DNA of 64,000 bases from Octopus vulgaris (Eukaryota), in assembly GCA_951406725.2 (NCBI GenBank), contig OX597824.1:48484001-48548000 (forward strand), written 5' to 3'. Below are positions 15,291-62,480 of this stretch, one piece after another. The notes below the pieces were generated by a model. That model did no database searches and had not been told where the DNA came from. It saw only the letters and a program-made list of their open reading frames with translations. Made by a program: the position numbers and the translations under genes. Numbering within the stretch: position 1 is the stretch's first letter; each line of letters begins with the position of its first letter.

Positions 15291-15605
15291 TGTGAGGTAT
15301 ATTTGCCATCTCAATATGGCTAACCACTAAGGGTGGGTGTTACTGTAGCTTGTAGCCCCAGGAGAACATCTCCTCCAGCTGTGCCCTAAGGTATTTGCAA
15401 AGGGCGGTCATCCTTCCTTCGTCAACCTAAGTGATACGCACGGACTGCAGTTGACGAGAGAAGGATGACCTCCCTTTGCAAATACCATAAGGGGACAGAA
15501 AGTGTGCCTAAAGCCACCTGGAGGAGATGTTCTCCTGGGGCTACAAGCTACAGTAACACCCACCCTTAGTGGTTAGCCATATTGAGATGGCAAATATACC
15601 TCACA
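15291..15605. mobile_element. fold-back MITE with 88-bp perfect TIRs (TGT...ACA termini)
   Basis: 15291-15378 is the exact reverse complement of 15518-15605. The interior forms a second imperfect stem of about 45 bp. No TSD is evident. Confidence 0.85.
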
Positions 15606-15644
15606 TTGTCGTGCAGTTACTGTTTATACCTCGTTCAGAGATTT

Positions 15645-15727
<83 letters not shown>

Positions 15728-15792
15728 TGATGATGATGATGATGATAATAATAATAATAATAATAATGATGATGATGATGATGATGATGATG

Positions 15793-15867
<75 letters not shown>

Positions 15868-16415
15868 GGATTGCCTGTTGGACACTTTGCAACAAGTATG
15901 GACTTGACAGAGAAAATAAGTGGTACGAACATAAACCCAAAGGCATCATCGAAAATGATAATGCGAAGATCCTATGGGATTTTATGATTCAGTGTGACCA
16001 TGAGATAGAGAATATGAAACCAGACATAGTGTTAATTGAGAAAGAACGCAAACGATGCTGGATCGTAGATATAGCATGCCCAGCTGACAACAAAGTCTGC
16101 GACAAGGAAGAAAGAAAAGTCGATAGATATAACAGGTTAGTTTGGGAGGTTAAGCATTTGTGGTCGCTGTAAAAGGTGGTAGTAGTAGCAATAATTGCCA
16201 GAGCGCTGGGAACAGTGAGTAAAAATCTTGAGGAGTAGATGGAACAAATAAGGGCTGCAATAAGGGTGGAGCACTTGCAGAAGACAGTACTGCTTGGAAC
16301 CGCTCGAATATTCCGGGTGGCGCTCGAAAAATAAAGGGTATTACCTTAGTTCACTGATAGTGAACAGCTGGCACTGTAGTACATCTCCAGCTTTAGAATC
16401 TGTGGAAATACAATA
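15868..16415 (+). mobile_element. R4/Dong LINE 3' end with RLE PD..D motif, flanked by (TAA)n
   Basis: WTLCNKYGL..KWYEHKP...ILWDFMIQCDHEIENMKPDIVLIEK..CWIVDIACPAD..KEERKVDRY, then LQKTVLLGTARIFR; (TAA)n on both sides. Confidence 0.92.
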
Positions 16416-16426
16416 AAGTAATGATG

Positions 16427-16498
<72 letters not shown>

Positions 16499-16550
16499 TA
16501 ATAATAATAATAATAATAATGATGATGATGATAATAATAATGATAATAAC

Positions 16551-16634
<84 letters not shown>

Positions 16635-16682
16635 TATAATAATAATAATAATAATGATGATGATAATAATAATGATAATAAC

Positions 16683-16761
<79 letters not shown>

Positions 16762-16924
16762 GAATAACTGCCCTGATGCAGTGGGTCCCGTGGCTCCTGA
16801 TCTTAACTGATTGGAAGTTTTATTATGTACATTATTTTGTCTTGGTATAAAAGAGGGGCAACAACAAATATTCTGCTCAATACCACAGATTTGTAAACGA
16901 TTCTGCCAGTTCGCCACACTATCG

Positions 16925-17088
<164 letters not shown>

Positions 17089-17109
17089 TGTTTTTTTTTT
17101 GTTTTTTTA

Positions 17110-18556
17110 TATCGTGCTTTCACTTCACTACCGGGCGCAGCTCTGTGTGCCTTGGGTATGTGCTGTGTTTTGTTCTGATGCTCTGATGGATACTGTATTG
17201 AAAGTGTTTTGCGAAGGATGTGGACAGTGCCCAGTAGTGTAATTTTCTGTATGTTATATGTGTTTGTAAGTCCTGGTGTTTTTGTTATATATTTGTCTGA
17301 ATATTTGTTATCGTGCCTAATGTACTTACTATGATAGGAATTGTTTCTGTTTTTAGATTCCACATTCGAGTTACCTCTATTTCCAGATCTTTGTATTTTG
17401 AAAGTTTCTCCATATCTTTTATAGACAAGTTGTCATCTGCCGGTATTGATACATCAATTAGAAAGCATTTTTGTTCCTTCATGATCTCTGATAACTATAT
17501 CTGGTCTGTTGGCCTTAATTTCTCTATCTGTGTGTATTGGCATATCTCAGAGTATGGTTACTTTCTCGTTTTCTGTGACCTTTTCTGGTGTGTGCCTATA
17601 CCATCTTTTTTCTGTTGTCATTCCATAATGTTGGCATAGCTTCCAGTGTATGTAGGTTCCAACTCTGGCATGTCTGTGAATATATTCCTTCTTAGCCAGG
17701 ACTGAGCAGCCAGAGAAAATGTGATTTATTGTTTCTTGTCCATCTCGACATATTCTGCAATTACTTGTTATATTTCTTTTCAATATATGTTTTTGGTAAT
17801 TTCTGGTGGAGAGGCTTTGGTCTTGTCCCTCTATCTCTGCTTTGAGTCCTGAGCTTCTCAACCATTGCTGGGATTTTTCTTCGTCTATTTCTTTTGCATC
17901 TAGTTTAGTCCAGTGTTATAAAGCTGTTCTAAGTTTCACTAAGAAAGCTCAAGCAACAGCATGTTCGACGTTTCCTGATTATTCTGGCCGTGCCAAGGAG
18001 GCAAACCTTTTGTAACAGTTCTACTGGGCACTCTATTCCAATTTCCTTTATATTCCTCCATGAAGTGGCTTTTCTTGCCATCGTTTTATCATGGTCCGTT
18101 GCTGTTCTAGTTTTAGTTTGGATTTCATTTGTTTTAAAGCTTTTCTTCTTCTTCTTCTTCTTCTTCTTCTTCTTCTTCTTCTTCTTCTTCTTCTTCTTCT
18201 TCTTCTTCTTCTTCTTCTTCTTCTTCTTCTTCTTCTTCTTCTTCTTCTTCTTCTTCATATTTGTTAGGTGGTATGATTTCTTGTTTGTCAGCTTCCTTAA
18301 ATACTGAGAACAGTATTTTGTTTTGCTCGTGTTTTGCAGCTATTTGTATCAGTTTTCCTTGCTTCTGAAGTAGGTATTTTGCAGTCCTATGGTGGTTATT
18401 TTATAATAGTTTTCCAACTGTATAAGGCCTCTACAACCTTCTATACGTTGTATATATTGCCTTTCTATGTCAGATTTTGAGTGATGCATCCTAGATCCTG
18501 TCATTATTTTTCTTGTTTTCCTATCTATTTTGGTTAGTTCATTTAGTGTCCAGTTC
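17110..18556 (-). mobile_element. R4/Dong LINE 3' portion, interrupted by (AAG)n and a nested Dong tail
   Basis: NWTLNELTKIDRKTRK, WQEKPLHG, WLRSSGLKAE, CRICRDGQETINHIFSGC..EYIHRH (CCHC), CFLIDVSIPAD..KLSKYKDLEIEV, NIQKITLLGTVHILRK. Confidence 0.93.
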
Positions 18557-24080: not shown

Positions 24081-25101
24081 AATATAGATCTATAATTAAA
24101 GTAAATTATGGCGGTGCATCAGCATGGTCGCAGCTCTGAGCTGAAACTACAGAAAAAAAAGAAACTAATAACACGTCCTAAATGCAAAAAAAAAGCAAAC
24201 TAAATAATCCATTATAATTAAAAACTGCCAATGGACTTGCTACTTGGGAATAACTCAAATTATCTATAATTATAAAATTAAAACATATGTAATTTAAATC
24301 AACGTATACACTTACAACTAAGAATATTGAAACTACTAAAATAAAAATACTATCGAAATAATGCTATATATAACGAAATCTTACGTGTTGCAGAGAAATT
24401 AACGGAAAACATGTTCACGTCTTAACCCTACTCTGCCAAAGATCCGAAAAATTGATGCCTGTCAACAGGTGGAAGTCAATCCGAATTACCCAATGGAAGA
24501 GATGTTGTACCCTATAGAAAATGACGGCTACACAGCAGGAGTAAATGACAACCAGCCTCAAAACACCAGAGTAAAAGGCTAACACTCCTTACAATTCCAG
24601 GCTCAACTGAAAACTCGAGATCATTCCATACATTCTCAAAACCTCACTATGTTTACATAAACAATAATTAAAACATTTAACCAACCTTTTACTACTGTAA
24701 TCTTATTTTTACCTGTGCGCCTTTAACGTATTAACCTATCCAAAAACATTCCAACATTATTTATAATTCTATCATATCTAATGACCTGACTGAAAAACAC
24801 GTTATAATCCATCCATAGAGGAATTCTACTACACTCCTAATGCAATGATGTAATGTAGAAATTAGATGTTTTATTGTAAATACTCGTTTCGACCTTAATA
24901 TTTTCTCACACTCAAATTGTTAACTTCTTTTACGGAGTCACCATTTCTACTTGCCTCGGGATTCTCCGGATATATTTTACTCAGCAAATATTCAAAATGC
25001 CTATAGTTAGGAATAAAAATATCATAGATAAATCTGCAGCATTCAGTGAGTTGTTTGACCAAACCTATCTTTTTTCTTCGGTATAAATCATTAAGAAAGA
25101 T

Positions 25102-25455
25102 TTATGCAAGGTTTACACGGACTCAGATGTCTTCACTTATGTAGGGGCCTCATCCTCAAGATTGTCTTTGCGTGTCTCCAACCATTACGCAACTTTTCGG
25201 GACATGAACAAGCGCCAGACCACGGGACTCAGTAAGCTAATATGGCGACTGAAGGATACGAACTTAAGCTACAGGCTGGAATGGTCCATTTTGTCGGTGG
25301 CCCTCCCATTTGATAGGGGCAGAAGGCAGTGCAACCTTTGTGTCTCCGAACTCTTCCATATTTTGTTTGCCAGAGGCCAGATGGTAAACGGGCTTTTACA
25401 GTCGGCTTTCCGATGCCCCCATTGGCGGCGTTACACTTATCTGGCTTTTAAATAG
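25102..25455 (+). pseudogene. GIY-YIG endonuclease domain of a Penelope-like retroelement (5'-truncated)
   Basis: ORF 25162-25455 extends upstream in frame to the YVG motif; conserved R, NH, E and N positions are present. Confidence 0.85.
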
Positions 25456-26048
25456 CGTTTATAAATAATACCGGCACCCATAGCCCTTGGTAACAAATTC
25501 TGAAATAGCCTTTAAGATATCTACGATTAACCACTGCAAGGGGAATTACTCCTGTAAGACAAACGGGGCTTGGTTTTTTCACAGCGGGGGTTTCCTTGAC
25601 AAGGCAGGCTTAGATGAACACACACACACATAAAACATGATATATATATTTTTTTTTTCTGCCACCCAACGGTTATCACGGCAGTAGCCACTGACAGCCG
25701 AACGATCAAACGCACACACGTACACAAAAAATGTTTTCTACCCCTACGCCAACACACACATATATAGAACAGTATACACACACACACGTCTCTAAGTAGA
25801 TTTTTTCTCGCCCCTTATAAAACATCCAATATTCTTTAAATAGTCAGAACTTTATTCTCGGTCACAAAGAACATCTACGCACCCTCACCCACATGATTGA
25901 CCGATGCTTGACCCGTTGAATTCTTCAGCCACCGGTTCTCAACATACACTGATAAACAGTTTCGCCATGGGCTCTTAGGAGCATAGTTCGATTTGTTTTT
26001 GCTCCGCCTCTGTTCTGTTTTTGTTTTTCCAACGGATTTCCTATTTTC

Positions 26049-26128
26049 TTCCTGAAGAGAAAGACACAATATGGTCCCATTATTCCATCGGATTTTGGTA
26101 ATTTGTGCCTTTCGAAACACGTGTAGAA
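26049..26128 (+). ncRNA. type I hammerhead ribozyme (intact core)
   Basis: TTC-CTGAAGA-[GAAAGACACAA...TTGTGCCTTTC stem II, 10/11 pairs]-GAAA-C-ACGT-GTA^GAA. Stem III is the palindrome ACACGTGT; predicted cleavage after 26125. Confidence 0.85.
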
Positions 26129-26342
26129 TGAAATAAAACGATTTCTGTTCAATCTGCGTTCAGCTCCATTTCTTCAATTCACCAATAATGTTCTAATTTC
26201 AATTATCCGCACCAACGCACGGTTGCAACACCATATGGTTGTACCTCCAACCGTGCTGTTTTACTGCTGTGATTTTTGCTACTAAGGTATCGGTTAAACT
26301 TTTGATTAATCTACTACAAGATTATTCATCTTTCTATTTCAC

Positions 26343-26382
<40 letters not shown>

Positions 26383-26387
26383 TTAAT

Positions 26388-26850
<463 letters not shown>

Positions 26851-29592: not shown

Positions 29593-30829
29593 CAGACATG
29601 CAGGAAGTAAATACACACCTTTGATTTTCAAAATCTTATATTTAATACGCAAAGCGAACAATCGGAATGTAATCGATAGGTAGAACTACACACTTTAGTA
29701 TTTAGTTGTCATTCCCTTTGCAGTTTTTATTTCAGAAACTCTTTTTGGCATTGAACTGATGAGCATTGTGATTGCCTCTTGTGGAATTTCTGCCCACTTT
29801 TCACGTAACAATCGAAGCAATTCATCTTTAGATTTAGGTTTCTGTCGAGCTTTTCGTATAGCTCTATCTAGTATGCGCCAAAGATTTTCAATTGGGTTCA
29901 TGTCAGGAGATTGACTCGGCCAAGGAAGCTTTTTGATCCCATTTTCAGCCAGCCATTGTTGATTCTTTTTCGCCGTGTGGCATGGAGCCCCGTCTTCCAT
30001 GAATAAAATCTCATTTTTTGTTATGTTATCGTGTGAATATATCGGATGTAGTCCTTGCTCAAATATTTCGATGTACTTTTTAGAGTTTGTGGTTCCAACA
30101 CATTCGATCAGCTCAGAACGTCCATTGCTGGTGACAGCTCCCCATACCATTACAAAGATACCGCCATGTTTCACAGTTGGTTGGAGTCGTTTCAAATCAA
30201 ATTCTTGATTGGGAAGCCTCCAGACCAAAACACGTCCACTGTCTGAAAATAATGCAAATCTGGATTCATCTGAGAAAATCACTCTATCCCGAAATGAACT
30301 GGATTTTTCGGACATCTCCTTAGCCTATTTCTTTATTTCCATGATATTAATTGGTTGAAGGAGAAGTTTTCTTTCAGCTGCTCGTCCATAATACCCAAGC
30401 TTATGCAGATATGTAACACACGTTCTTGGACTAACTTCTAGCTGTTTTGCAATGTCAAAAGCCTTCGAACGGGGTTCATTTTCCACAATTCTCTTCAAAC
30501 AGCGAAGCTTCATTTCCGAGGACCCAGGTCGGCCGGGACAAGAATCTGTTGATTTTTTTCCTTGTCTTTTGAATTGCACTATAATTCTATTAACAGTAGC
30601 AAGAGGAATTTGAAGATTTTCGGCGATTTTACACTGGCTAAGACCAGCCATAGATTACCCAACAATACCACCTCTTTGAAAATCTGACATTTTTGGGCGT
30701 GGCATGGTTACTCTTCACAGATGTTTAATATAATGGCACCAGGAATAAAAACGAATAGTTACATTGTAAATTCTACACCGCTGAAAACATTAAGACGCTT
30801 GGATCAGATATTTACTTCCTGCATGCCTG
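29593..30829 (-). mobile_element. full-length Tc1 (DD34E) transposon
   Basis: TIRs CAG(A/G)CATGCAGGAAGTAAATA at both ends, TA on the right; FSDESRF, FMEDGAPCH and SPDMNPIENLW, with 34 residues between D and E. Confidence 0.96.
29695..30705 (-). pseudogene. Tc1 transposase, single frame with two premature stops
   Basis: ATG at 30705 ([16 protein letters not shown]). ORFs 30325-30651 and 29695-30315 share one frame and are separated by a TAG where W is expected. Confidence 0.92.
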
Positions 30830-34587: not shown

Positions 34588-36089
34588 TTATAGAAGATTA
34601 ACCAAACATTAAGACTAGATACGTCATACATATTTAGATTTATCTAATATCTATCTTTCATGAAAATTTCAAGTGAATGGAATAGATATTTCGTAAGTCC
34701 TAAGGAAATAAACAAATGATCTTCCAAACTGCAACGGCCTAAAGTTAAGGGTCACTTAGAAAAACAGTGAAAAATGGAACAAAGAACAAAGAAGAAACAT
34801 TTACTATTAATATTTTGGAAACATCCTTTTACTAACAATGACTTTCTGACATCTGATACCACAGGACTGAATTAATTTCTTGCAAAATGATGGTGTAATA
34901 TTGTTCCATTCGTTTTTCAATAATTCCCAGAGTTCATATTAGTTCTTTGGATTTCCCCTTCGTGCCCCATCTCTAATAATCTTCCAAACGTTTTCTACAC
35001 GGTTGAGATCGGGACTTTGAGGTGGCCAGTCCATGAGATCAACCCCTTCGTCACATCCAGAAATCTTTGACACTCTTCGCAGTGTGACAAGGAGCGTTGT
35101 CCTGCACAAAGATAGAAGGTTGAACAGGTGAGGGTCGGAGATGTAGAAGGGCATACTGTCTAAGAATCTGTTTGTAGATTTCAGCATTGATAGTCCCTTG
35201 CAGGCGAATAAGTAGACCAGGACCAGCAGCAGAGATCACTCTCCATACCATTACACTCTCTTCACACATGCACGAGATAACCTTTCGCAACTTCCTCGTC
35301 GGATGTATATCCCACCATCGGAACCAGTCACAATAAACTCCGATTCATCACTAAAATGAACCTGCGAGCACTGTTCTTCTGTCCAAACGATACGATTCTT
35401 CTTGGAGATAAGACGTTTCTTTGCCGGTGCCCGAGCAAGTAACCCAGAACTTCGTAACCTCCGAAAAACTGTTTTGCACGATACGTTGACATCGGATGTG
35501 AAGCTAAACTCGCGGGATATCTCAGCAGCACTCTTATACCTCTGTTTCAGTGACTTTCTAACCAAAATACGATCCTGTCTTGGTGAAGTTTTACCAGGTC
35601 TACCAGTTTTGTATTCGATCCTGATGACTTAAAACGCGCTACAATATATTGAACTACACTTCTAGACCTTCCTACAGTAGTTGCTATCACAGAATTTGAC
35701 TTGCCCTCTTGGTGAAGGCACACGGTCCTTTGTTTTCATCACTGAATACCGGTCGTCTCCCATAATCCGCCATGTTGACAGTTGAATGTTCCAATAATGT
35801 AAGATCATAAGAAGTAACTGTTAGCCCATTAACAGTCTTCTAAACAACAAATACCTCGGTTAGTAGTTCATTTTTTTCTAAGTGATCTTTAACTTTTGGC
35901 CGTTGCAATTTGGAAAATTATTTGTTTATTTCTTCATAACTTACGAAATATTTATCCCATTCAGTTGAAATTATCACGAGATATAGATATTAGATATATC
36001 TAAATACGTGTAAAATATCTAATCTCAACGTTTTGTTAATCTTCTATAATAACGATTTCTTACTGACCCTTATATTCTGGCCGCTACTG
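34588..36089 (-). mobile_element. Tc1 transposon with long IR/DR termini, frameshifted
   Basis: About 180 bp of inverted repeat survives (34588-34765 vs within 35872-36089), with inner and outer direct repeats CGGCC..A..TAAGGGTCA. Peptides HFSDES, VMVWRVIS, FVQDNAPCH, WPPQSPDLNRVENVW. Confidence 0.93.
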
Positions 36090-36187: not shown

Positions 36188-36253
36188 GTAGACAGATTTT
36201 TATAGCTCACACTTTGTAAACAGACATTATATATATATATATATATATATATA

Positions 36254-36525
36254 AAGTATAGGAAAGAATGGAGCTGAACGAAGATTTAACAAAATTCCTT
36301 TATTTTATTTTCGAAATAAATAAATAAAATAAAGGAATTTTGTTAAATCTTCGTTCAGCTCCATTCTTTCCTATACTTAATATGTTAAACTTCAAATTTC
36401 CGCACTAAGGCACGGAGTTTATGCCCTATGGTCGTAACTTCAACCGTGCTTTTTCTGTTGTGAGTTTGCTACCCAGGTATCGGTTAACTTTCGAATTATC
36501 CGTAATAAGATAATTCATTTGTTTA

Positions 36526-36530
<5 letters not shown>
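36254..36530 (+). mobile_element. solo Penelope pLTR with 57-bp perfect inverted duplication
   Basis: 36322-36530 is homologous to 26126-26340; 36254-36310 is the exact reverse complement of 36322-36378; inserted in (TA)n. Confidence 0.85.
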
Positions 36531-36586
<56 letters not shown>

Positions 36587-59644: not shown

Positions 59645-62480
59645 TCCTAGGGCCATCTTCGGTCATGGCTGACCATGGGTATCACGTCCGTCCATCTATT
59701 GTCGAGGTTGGGCTTGAGCAGTGCTTCCTGTGGCTATGGAGACCAATGCGAGAATAACAGTCTCGGTCGCATAGATCGCATCTCTGTGTGGATTCTGGTC
59801 TGTCGGCTGTTGATCCCTTACATCGTGCTCGCTTTTCTGCATTGGCTGCCTTGCCAATTCTCTTGTCGATCTCAGCATCGAGAGAGAGGTTTTCAGTGAT
59901 GGTGGACCCAAGGTAGGTGAATTGATGAACAACTTCAAGTTCGTAGTCATCAATGGTGACGGCTGGTTGTGCTGGTGTGCCTTGCGCCAGGACGTTTGTC
60001 TTCTTCGGGCTGATGGTCAGTCCAAAGTCCTTGCAGGCCTGGGAGAAGCGGTCGATTAGCAGCTGCAGCTATCGCTGGGAGTGGATCATAACTGCGGCGT
60101 CGTCAACAAATAGAATGTCTCCGATGACAGCTTCACAGATCTTTGTACTAGCTTTTAGGCGGGCGAGATTGAAGAGCTTGCCATCTGATCTGGTCCTTCT
60201 TGTGCTGTGCCTAAAGTGCGTCTCAGAATGAGAGAGAAGATCCCAAAGAGCGTTGGGGCGAGCACACAGCCTTACTTGACTCTGCTGCCTATGTCGAAAG
60301 GTTCAGAGAGGTTGCCATTGAACTGCACAGTCCCCTTCATATTTGAGTGAAAGGACTCAATTAAGCTGTACAGTCTTGGAGGGCAGCCAATCTTATGGAG
60401 AGGCTTGAAGGGGCCGTCTCTGCTGACGAGGTCGAAGGCCTTGGTGAGGTCGATGAATGCTGCTCCCTGTACTTCTCCTGGAGTTGACGAAGGGAGAAGA
60501 TCATGTCTACAATGGACCTTTCAGCTTGGAAGCTGCACTGTGATTCTGAGTAGACATGCTCAGCCAACTTTTGCAGACGGGTCAGAAGTATCCGGGCGAA
60601 GACTTGCCAACGATGTTGAGGAGGAAGATGGCCCTATAGTCGTTACAGTCGCTTCTTTCGCACTTGTTCTTGTACAGGGTATCTATCTTTGCATCTCTCA
60701 TGTCTTGCGGTACAGTTCCCTCTCTTCAGTACTGGCAGAGGACTTCGTGCAAAGGCTGCAGTAGGGTAATCTTGCAGCGCTTTGTGAGATCTGGTGGGAT
60801 GATATCACCGCCTGGAGCTTTGTCTGCTGCTAGGCTGTTGATGGCCTTGCTGAGCTCATACATGGTTGGCTCTGCATCGAGCTCTTCCATGACCGGCATA
60901 CTCTCGATGGCTTCAAGGGCTGAAGAGGTCACTGTGTTCTCTCTGGAATAGAGATCAGAATAATGCTCCACCCATCTGTCCATTTGTCGGCCTTGATCAG
61001 TAATGACTGCTCCAGTGAGGGATTTGAGGGGAGCCGTCTTCTTCTGAGTTGGTCCCAGCACCCTCTTGATGCCACTGTACGTCCTTCTGATGTCGCCAGT
61101 TGCGGCGGTCATATGGATCGACTCGCTGAGCTCTGTCTAGTACTCAATGTCGCAGCGCCTGGCAGTCTGCTGAACCTTGCTCCTGGCAGTCCTCAGAATC
61201 TGCAGGTTCCTCTTAGTGGGTGACCGCTTGTATTCCGCCAGTGCGCCTCGTTTGGCTTCAATTACAGGAGTCATCTCTAGCGACTTGGCCTCGAACCAGT
61301 CACATGACTTTGAGGTGTTCTTTCCGAAGATAGACAAAGCTGTGCGATGGATTGTGTCGCATAGAGTTTCCCATCTCTGTGGCAGTATCTCTGGACTGTG
61401 CTGCATTACACTCCTCTCCAAAAGCCTCTGCAAACTGTTCTACAAGGTCGGGCTGAGACATCTTGTTGACATCGATGTGTGGGGTCCTCGATTTCTTTGC
61501 ACGGTGGAACTTTTGGGGTTGTAGCCTGATCTTACAGCACACCAAGGAGTGGCCTGTGTCGCAGTCTGCGCTGTGGTAAGATCGCGTGTGGAGTACACAC
61601 TTGTTGGTGGCACGCCTGACCAGGATCAGATCCAATTGGTGCCAATGCTTTGAGCATGGATGTCTCCAAGACACTTTGTGCTGGGGCTTGGTCTTGAAGA
61701 AGGAGTTGGTGATGCACAGGTCGTGAAAGGTGCAGAGCTCGAGCAATCGCTGTCCGTTCTCGTTCGATATCGACGTTCAGCCCCTTGAGCCCCTCGTTGA
61801 TGACTGCTGTTTTCCTAACGTCAATGATGTCCTAAAGGTTCTGGGAGAAGCCAGGCATCATTGTCCGGACATTCCAAGATCCCAGTTTTAGAGCTGGTCC
61901 CTTTTTGTTAGCTTTTCTGTTTTGCCTGATGCGATAGTTGACGATCTGCTTGTCGGATGTTCTCCTTATCCCCATGAACCTAATGAGGAAAGCAAGCCGT
62001 GACGGGACAACGCCTTACTGGCTGGGGTCTGCCTAACTTAAGGCGGGTGGTAGGTGTCCAATGAGACTCGAAGATCTCTCCCACCGTCGGAAGCAACCCC
62101 TAGCGCCGCACTCTACTCCAATTGAGTAAAGGTTTATAATCGGTATCAGCTGCTTCTCGTGTTGTGTCGACACCAAATAAATGGCGAGTCTGGACAATGT
62201 AGTATGGAGAACATGCTGTTTCCCATGCAATGTGGTCGCAGGGGCTGCCAAGGCGAAGTTGAAGTCAACATCGAGCTGCCTGATTTTTCCTCGAGGTTTA
62301 CTCCTGAAGCCTTTCCCGTGGTCAGGTTTGAAATCAGGGTTTCCTTTCCCCTAGGTGGGCTGTCCTCCTGGGTTGACGAGCCCCACCTGCCTGAAGCAAC
62401 TGGTTATGAGGCGCCATATACCTGCCTTTGCTCCTTCTCCTGTCAGTGGTCGTAGTTCCGCCGAGCTTTGAGGCTAAGCT
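59645..62480 (-). mobile_element. RTE-clade LINE with 5' UTR, internally deleted APE-RT and C-terminal zinc finger
   Basis: LKLGSWNVRTM, LCITNSFFKTKPQHKVSWRHP..HWHQLDLILV, KAPGGDIIP, SESQCSFQAERSIVDMIFSLRQLQEK, LFVDDAA, CDRDCYSRIGLHSHRKHC; the 5' UTR carries CTAGGGGAAAGGAAACCCTGATTTCAAACC. Confidence 0.93.

Follow-up and report, generated by a model that had tools for sequence, protein, structure and literature searches.

A head-to-head Penelope-like insertion in Octopus vulgaris and the position of its family's junctions relative to a predicted hammerhead cut

EN+ Penelope-like elements (EN+ PLEs) have been described as insertions in which an inverted, truncated 5' copy lies head to head with the element and a one-sided extension is left over, with a hammerhead and TATA and Inr-like motifs in the pLTR and with (TA)n as target (PMC3846280; PMC8557442). 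In PMC3846280, the inverted copy was proposed to arise by self-priming on an antisense template, and the passages of PMC8557442, PMC11167929, and PMC4209133 that deal with the matter leave open both the origin of the inverted ends of PLEs and the role of the hammerhead in transposition. In vitro, the protein of Poseidon_Ac was reported to cut both strands and to extend them, starting at sites internal to the RNA; insertion was unchanged when the hammerhead was mutated, so that the ribozyme is not needed there (PMC11167929). As given in PMC4209133, the minimal type I hammerhead is defined by CUGANGA and GAAA boxes, an NUH triplet, a long helix II, a helix I, and a palindromic helix III/loop 3. 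From another angle, chimeras of U6 and LINE-1 RNA have been attributed to ligation by RtcB, for which a 5'-OH is required (PMC6789731).

Here, we analyzed a 64,000-nucleotide window of Octopus vulgaris DNA (contig OX597824.1), which holds an insertion of 274 bases at 36 kb. This insertion and its relatives share with EN+ PLEs all the features listed at the outset, and the 36-kb feature is a genuine and ordinary member of the architecture published in PMC8557442 and PMC3846280. Among the openly accessible main texts searched, we encountered no paper that maps PLE junctions against the hammerhead cut.

A hairpin insertion and its two element families

Positions within an element are counted from the base directly after the predicted hammerhead cut (+1); family 1 is the 36-kb copy's own family, and family 2 is the sister family, represented in the window by a copy at 26 kb. 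The 36-kb insertion has a mirror-image layout and lies between a left (TA)13 tract (36228-36253) and a right (TA)27 tract (36528-36582), both unstranded, family copies being flanked by (TA)n on both sides and a target site duplication not being resolvable within such a repeat. It consists, in this order, of an inverted arm running from +59 to +1 (36254-36312, minus strand), the dinucleotide GA, a 7-nt A/T filler built of AAAT units (36315-36321, plus strand), and a forward arm running from +3 to +208 (36322-36527, plus strand), the stretch from +60 to +208 being present in the forward arm only. The 3' end of the forward arm is a fixed end of the family, and the outer end of the inverted arm is a fixed internal start point of family 1, which we infer to be a second priming site. 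In an alignment to another member (L005), the filler is absent from the family sequence; it may stem from end joining or from slippage, and similar fillers are present at other junctions too.

A preliminary description of this locus had reported a perfect 57-bp inverted repeat (36254-36310 against 36322-36378) set in (TA)n around an 11-nt spacer, TCGAAATAAAT (36311-36321), and had traced it to a Penelope-like pLTR, and in both respects it was right. It had also called the copy a solo pLTR, a label that has to be dropped since the pLTR is not whole: the ribozyme core and the part upstream of it are gone, and only the strand after the cut is kept. Its forward arm was further said to start just after a GUA cleavage triplet, when 36322 is in fact +3 rather than +1 and the triplet of family 1 is GUC; what stands is that the junction lies on the predicted cut. 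Indeed, the mirror axis (TC|GA, 36312|36313) falls exactly at the predicted family-1 cut, which makes the coincidence tighter than had been claimed, yet it also falls at the center of a natural 4-bp palindrome (TCGA, 36311-36314); family 1 has seven such short palindromes in the interval from -40 to +30. That the TCGAAA of the spacer is instead the ribozyme's own GAAA box is possible and less parsimonious, as 10 nt would have to be replaced by 5.

The 26-kb copy is a separate family-2 insertion (25087-26345, plus strand) made of an endonuclease remnant, a 3' region, a hammerhead, and a pLTR end. Its minimal type I hammerhead (26053-26125) reads CUGAAGA ... GAAA CACGUG UA with a predicted cut after 26125, and the GIY-YIG-type ORF remnant upstream of it (25087-25455) shares 56% identity with the C-terminal part of the complete ORF of a family-1 member (L083). 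The homology previously noted between the two copies is real (36323-36518 against 26127-26329, 73.9% identity, E = 6e-26), but the 26-kb copy is not the parent of the 36-kb one, which is only 74% identical to it as against 95–98% to copies of its own family (genome search, best 40 of 2,788 candidates scored). In the genome, an exact family-1 27-mer occurs 243 times and family 2 has 1,672 matches, with the same layout as family 1 and no palindrome at its cut. Four same-orientation family-2 matches spaced 3,624–3,625 bp apart (G000:C1:119514313-119525211) form a head-to-tail tandem whose units are apparently full-length.

The family-1 ribozyme reads CUGAAGA, helix II, GAAA, CAUAUG, UC, cut, GAAAAU. 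All elements of the minimal type I hammerhead (PMC4209133) are found in both families, self-cleavage being a prediction, and the two hammerheads differ from each other in helix II sequence and in palindrome (ACAUAUGU, ACACGUGU). Since Rfam gave no hammerhead in the window among the 150 matches listed out of 240, amid microsatellite noise, and none at 25800-26400, the call rests on motif and fold.

In full-length copies of family 1, the open frame spans about 890 codons (896 in L083, 891 in L088), a single ORF that combines a reverse transcriptase with a GIY-YIG endonuclease in the manner of EN+ PLEs. Among Atlas look-alikes at 0.95–0.98, GIY-YIG is found in 26–50% of members and RVT_1 in 18–77%; when the complete L083 ORF was itself compared with Pfam and with PDB sequences, no relevant match was obtained. 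L088 has the pLTR layout of EN+ PLEs, that is, an inverted arm, a partial direct pLTR that runs into the ORF, and a 3' pLTR; as this pLTR leads into the ORF beyond +208, position +208 must lie within the RNA. By eye, the L083 protein shares with the Hydra clade, as described in PMC8557442, a DKT motif, the lack of CCHH, CxxC before a conserved E, and CxH after a conserved N, to which (TA)n targets can be added; the CxCX5C linker and the RWK motif of that description were not seen in this one copy read, which has RW(L). Given this partial motif fit, we place the 36-kb element, an EN+ PLE, probably in the Hydra clade. A non-LTR retrozyme, made of non-coding tandem monomers with a ribozyme each, was considered and rejected, the copies being truncations of a coding element with arms that reach up to about 3 kb into the ORF.

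Around residues 640–780, the L083 ORF contains a long Asn/Ser-rich stretch between reverse transcriptase and endonuclease, reminiscent of inserts rich in Asn that are known from Penelopes of rotifers (PMC3846280). Three near-identical full-length copies located near contig ends (L083, L065, and L028, on C7, C4, and C31) share their flanks and have their 5' region inverted relative to the ORF; these are probably segmental duplicates. The window itself also holds ORF remnants (29695-30654, minus strand; 35251-35628, plus strand; 59682-61776; 15570-17915), which resemble transposases of the Tc1/mariner group and reverse transcriptases of RTE or other non-LTR type.

Distribution of junctions around the predicted cut

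For family 1, 163 loci were fetched: 30 top matches by similarity to the query, the rest from listed matches (the first 100 of 243, 100 of 113, and 25 of 25). With 8 re-fetched or duplicate loci and the loci without an inverted arm skipped, 147 arms were mapped, and removal of the index locus and of one tandem duplicate left 145, both arms being adjacent at 105 loci. The forward end of one locus (L120) was placed by hand, and the sample represents the young subfamily only.

Contrary to the earlier suggestion that the cut sets the inverted terminus, what defines this terminus is a fixed outer end at about +59. The outer ends of family 1 are fixed at about +59 and about +208, both after TACTT and both joined to (TA)n, and, at 76 loci not selected for TA, 65 of the 67 non-forward arms end at +58 to +64 into (TA)n, the other two a few nucleotides beyond. 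The fixed end of the inverted arm occurs 138 times genome-wide, and loose (TA)n ends at 36377-36383 (the +57 to +62 joint) are present in contigs of four out of four runs, from four studies.

The inner ends of the inverted arms range from +36 to beyond -2,900. The plot of breakpoints against the hammerhead that had been put forward as a check of the cleavage model accordingly reveals a broad spread, 115 of the 145 inverted arms passing upstream of the cut and upstream sequence being missing from both arms at only 20 of the 105 loci, together with a small excess at the cut. Ends within 2 nt of +1 number 13 out of 85 when 6.5 are expected (uncorrected P = 0.012, arms not being independent), and a window near +9 exceeds that of the cut, with 15.5 ends. 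Expressed per locus and per nucleotide, the stopping rate is 1.0% at about -2 to +12, 0.65–0.84% at -3 to -30, 0.2% at -31 to -100, 0.6–0.7% at -101 to -180, and 0.18% beyond -180. The last drop falls at TATAAATAG (-176) and TCATT (about -155), which, by consensus, would be TATA-like and initiator-like, respectively, and the region around -155 is a candidate transcription start as read from the junctions. Motifs at -176 to -145 were read in L005, L007, and L134. The stopping rate upstream of these motifs is roughly fourfold lower, and, among 27 double-ended family-1 loci, 6 end at -145 to -166.

Family 2 served as a replicate. Raw junction-pattern matches numbered 154 at -4 to +9, 119 at -27 to -15, 85 at -90 to -78, and 25 at +16 to +28, with 103 at -17 to -5 for one subfamily only; when loci were checked by script, 4 of 30, 9 of 30, and 7 of 25 proved to be false positives due to indels, and the -90 to -78 window contains so many that about 50 of its 85 matches are real by eye, a rough figure. 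Matched for subfamily (39 of 62 rows, hand count), about 84 ends fall in the cut window against about 72 in the 13-nt window upstream, and hence there is no cliff at the family-2 cut. Ends at -1 to +2 nevertheless number 34 of 91 against 20.3 expected (about 1.7-fold, P = 0.0008 under a null that models chance extension; tallied by hand on the first 100 rows of the -4 to +9 matches, 9 dropped), or about 35 of 89 once rechecking had discarded 4 rows and readmitted 2, the P value being that of the original tally. A post hoc bump lies upstream of the cut at -10 to -8 (27 against 16.1, 1.68-fold; first 100 rows, 20 dropped). With 40 extra family-2 loci included, mostly picked near the cut, both arms end within -2 to +2 at eight family-2 loci, with no palindrome spanning the cut there, and 7 of 14 listed pairs have this configuration (P = 0.01–0.11 depending on the null). 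We conclude that ends are in probably genuine, though slight, excess at the cut.

Possible origins of the mirror-image layout

The relation between the two arms informs on how they were made. At the 105 family-1 loci with adjacent arms, these do not overlap at 31 and overlap, forming a palindrome, at 74, including 33 at which the inverted arm extends upstream past the forward arm; the 31 non-overlapping and 33 over-long cases together exclude a single snap-back at 64 of the 105 loci. Inner ends are coupled (Spearman 0.58), with 24 of the 74 overlapping pairs within 10 nt against 6.8 expected, and 1–7 nt of microhomology is found at 54 of the 105 joins.

We consider it fairly probable that the 36-kb copy is a 5'-truncated, head-to-head EN+ PLE insertion generated by two-sided target-primed reverse transcription. 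The GIY-YIG endonuclease would cut both strands of the (TA)n tract, and each 3' end would prime a cDNA at one of two fixed internal sites of the RNA. Both cDNAs would then extend toward the RNA 5' end and halt at similar places, be it a 5' end set by the promoter near -155, the ribozyme in its folded state, or, in some cases, the site of ribozyme cleavage, before end joining linked them, preferentially at self-complementary sites; in the 36-kb copy, both would have halted at the cut. Two-sided priming fits better than snap-back because non-overlapping and over-long inverted arms are impossible for a self-copying cDNA, and inner ends should be coupled when a single RNA is the template of both cDNAs and they are halted by the same obstacles or by the 5' end of that RNA. 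The in vitro cutting and extension of both strands by a PLE protein (PMC11167929) agrees with this scheme. Moreover, cDNAs of the same polarity can anneal only at self-complementary sites, and perfect folds do accumulate on such sites upstream of the family-2 cut, most commonly on the palindrome TTTCGAAA (10 exact loci and a further one nearby; first 100 of 119 rows) and at least 4 times on ACACGTGT. Three observations weigh against two-sided priming: in the symmetric subset, coupled inner ends fit snap-back as well; two loci discussed below have an identical foreign junction in each of their arms, for which a pre-joined template or snap-back is needed; and the one-sided tail measures about 149 nt (+60 to +208), the same kind of tail as the 30–40 nt published for EN+ PLEs but of another length (PMC3846280; PMC8557442).

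Both loci deserve description. L200 (G000:C1:121057031-121060065, 1531-2079) is a palindromic family-2 insertion whose two arms reach -1/+1, that is, the predicted cut, and then enter the same very GC-rich sequence of 265–280 nt, joined head to head. This piece corresponds to an internal stretch of the 18S rRNA gene in the sense direction, and 2 nt (AG) at the join are common to rRNA and pLTR. A search for a donor copy of the rRNA–pLTR fusion matched only the two arms of L200 in the assembly, whose rDNA arrays may be collapsed, and rDNA next to a PLE arm was found at no other fetched locus. Hammerhead cleavage leaves a 5'-OH on the 3' product, and an RtcB-like ligation joining a fragment of rRNA to that end of the cut RNA would fit this structure; so would a jump between templates with subsequent snap-back, or a donor masked by the collapse of rDNA. 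At L006 (G000:C13:3745380-3748582), in family 1, both arms stop at +6 and enter the same foreign repeat-like sequence of about 265 nt in all, presumably a SINE-like repeat, and this join at +6 rather than at the cut weakens the case for ligation at the cut. The assembly also contains an rDNA array whose tandem units recur about every 18.4 kb (G000:C20:23960784-24076289) and many dispersed 18S fragments elsewhere.

Of the competing explanations, the one that fares best, although we regard it as unlikely, is that self-priming or snap-back at a palindrome or a stall, independent of cleavage, makes the symmetric hairpins, including the 36-kb copy, whereas the asymmetric ones arise by another route. 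In PMC3846280, self-priming was the interpretation given to palindromes at inverted junctions, and the 27 family-1 loci with inner ends at most 10 nt apart (index locus counted) and the identical foreign junctions of L200 and L006 agree with it. It nonetheless needs two mechanisms that have one common fixed end at +59, and it offers no reason for a copied-back strand to halt at +59 and join (TA)n.

We give markedly less credit to the model of the preliminary description, in which the template is a ribozyme-cleaved RNA and the inverted terminus is set, as a rule, by snap-back of a cDNA that has run off at the cut. It draws on the axis of the 36-kb copy, on the excess of ends at the cut in both families, and on the eight family-2 loci that end both arms there outside any palindrome. 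As a general rule it is refuted, for most inverted arms extend upstream of the cut, the window near +9 is higher in family 1, the upstream window is about as full in family 2 with an equal-sized bump at -10 to -8, and the geometry rules out snap-back at 64 loci; it survives as a minor route. As for a fold-back chimera of sequencing or assembly, it is scarcely credible: the arms are 100% identical and the locus junction (36254-36333) is uncovered in contigs of four DNA data sets, but the mirror ends at the family's fixed +59 and gives way to unique flank, more than 100 loci combine the same +59 end with different inner joins, arms of other copies have diverged from one another (L200), and the +57 to +62 joint with (TA)n recurs in four independent data sets.

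Within two-sided priming, cleaved RNA was probably used some of the time, as a minor template. From the roughly 1.7- to 2-fold excess of ends, we put the chance that the 36-kb copy itself was templated by cleaved RNA at about even, the other possibility being TCGA microhomology on uncut RNA; a blunt join of run-off cDNAs and such a microhomology give the same letters, and the copy is therefore assignable to neither. More tentatively, and with slightly less than even confidence, we propose that Penelope hammerheads cut in vivo, that the cut RNA is a minority template whose cDNAs run off at +1 and join, and that its 5'-OH can be ligated to host RNA. If this were true, insertion junctions would be a fossil record of the two 5' ends of the RNA, one at the promoter start near -155 and the other at the cut.

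Comparison with described systems

The 36-kb copy alone settles nothing, and it is the two families that provide a genome-scale test set, with putative fixed priming sites 149 nt apart, a geometry that speaks for two-sided priming, a small excess at the cut, and one rRNA–pLTR chimera at the cut. Should this excess persist once all loci are mapped one by one, there would be genomic evidence for in vivo cleavage by PLE ribozymes. In the twin priming of LINE-1, the second target strand reportedly primes internally and leaves an inverted 5' part with a microhomology join; here, by contrast, the internal site does not vary, and at most loci (74 of 105) the two arms overlap and hence form a palindrome. 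Relative to the published accounts of EN+ PLEs (PMC3846280; PMC8557442), the present data add breakpoints mapped in 145 family-1 arms and several hundred family-2 pattern matches.

With regard to the U6/LINE-1 chimeras described in PMC6789731, L200 likewise has host RNA joined 5' of retroelement RNA, although it is a single 18S rRNA–pLTR locus with a 2-nt microhomology at the join and its ligation is putative. Finally, the account of Poseidon_Ac in PMC11167929 shares with the scheme proposed for our families the cutting and extension of both strands, an AT-rich target, two internal start sites that bound the tail, and an insertion process for which the ribozyme is dispensable; Poseidon_Ac belongs to another clade, and the start sites of family 1 lie further apart. 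In the text of that report, no reads end at the cut and uncut RNA is the dominant substrate, whereas the octopus genome displays a small excess of ends at the cut.
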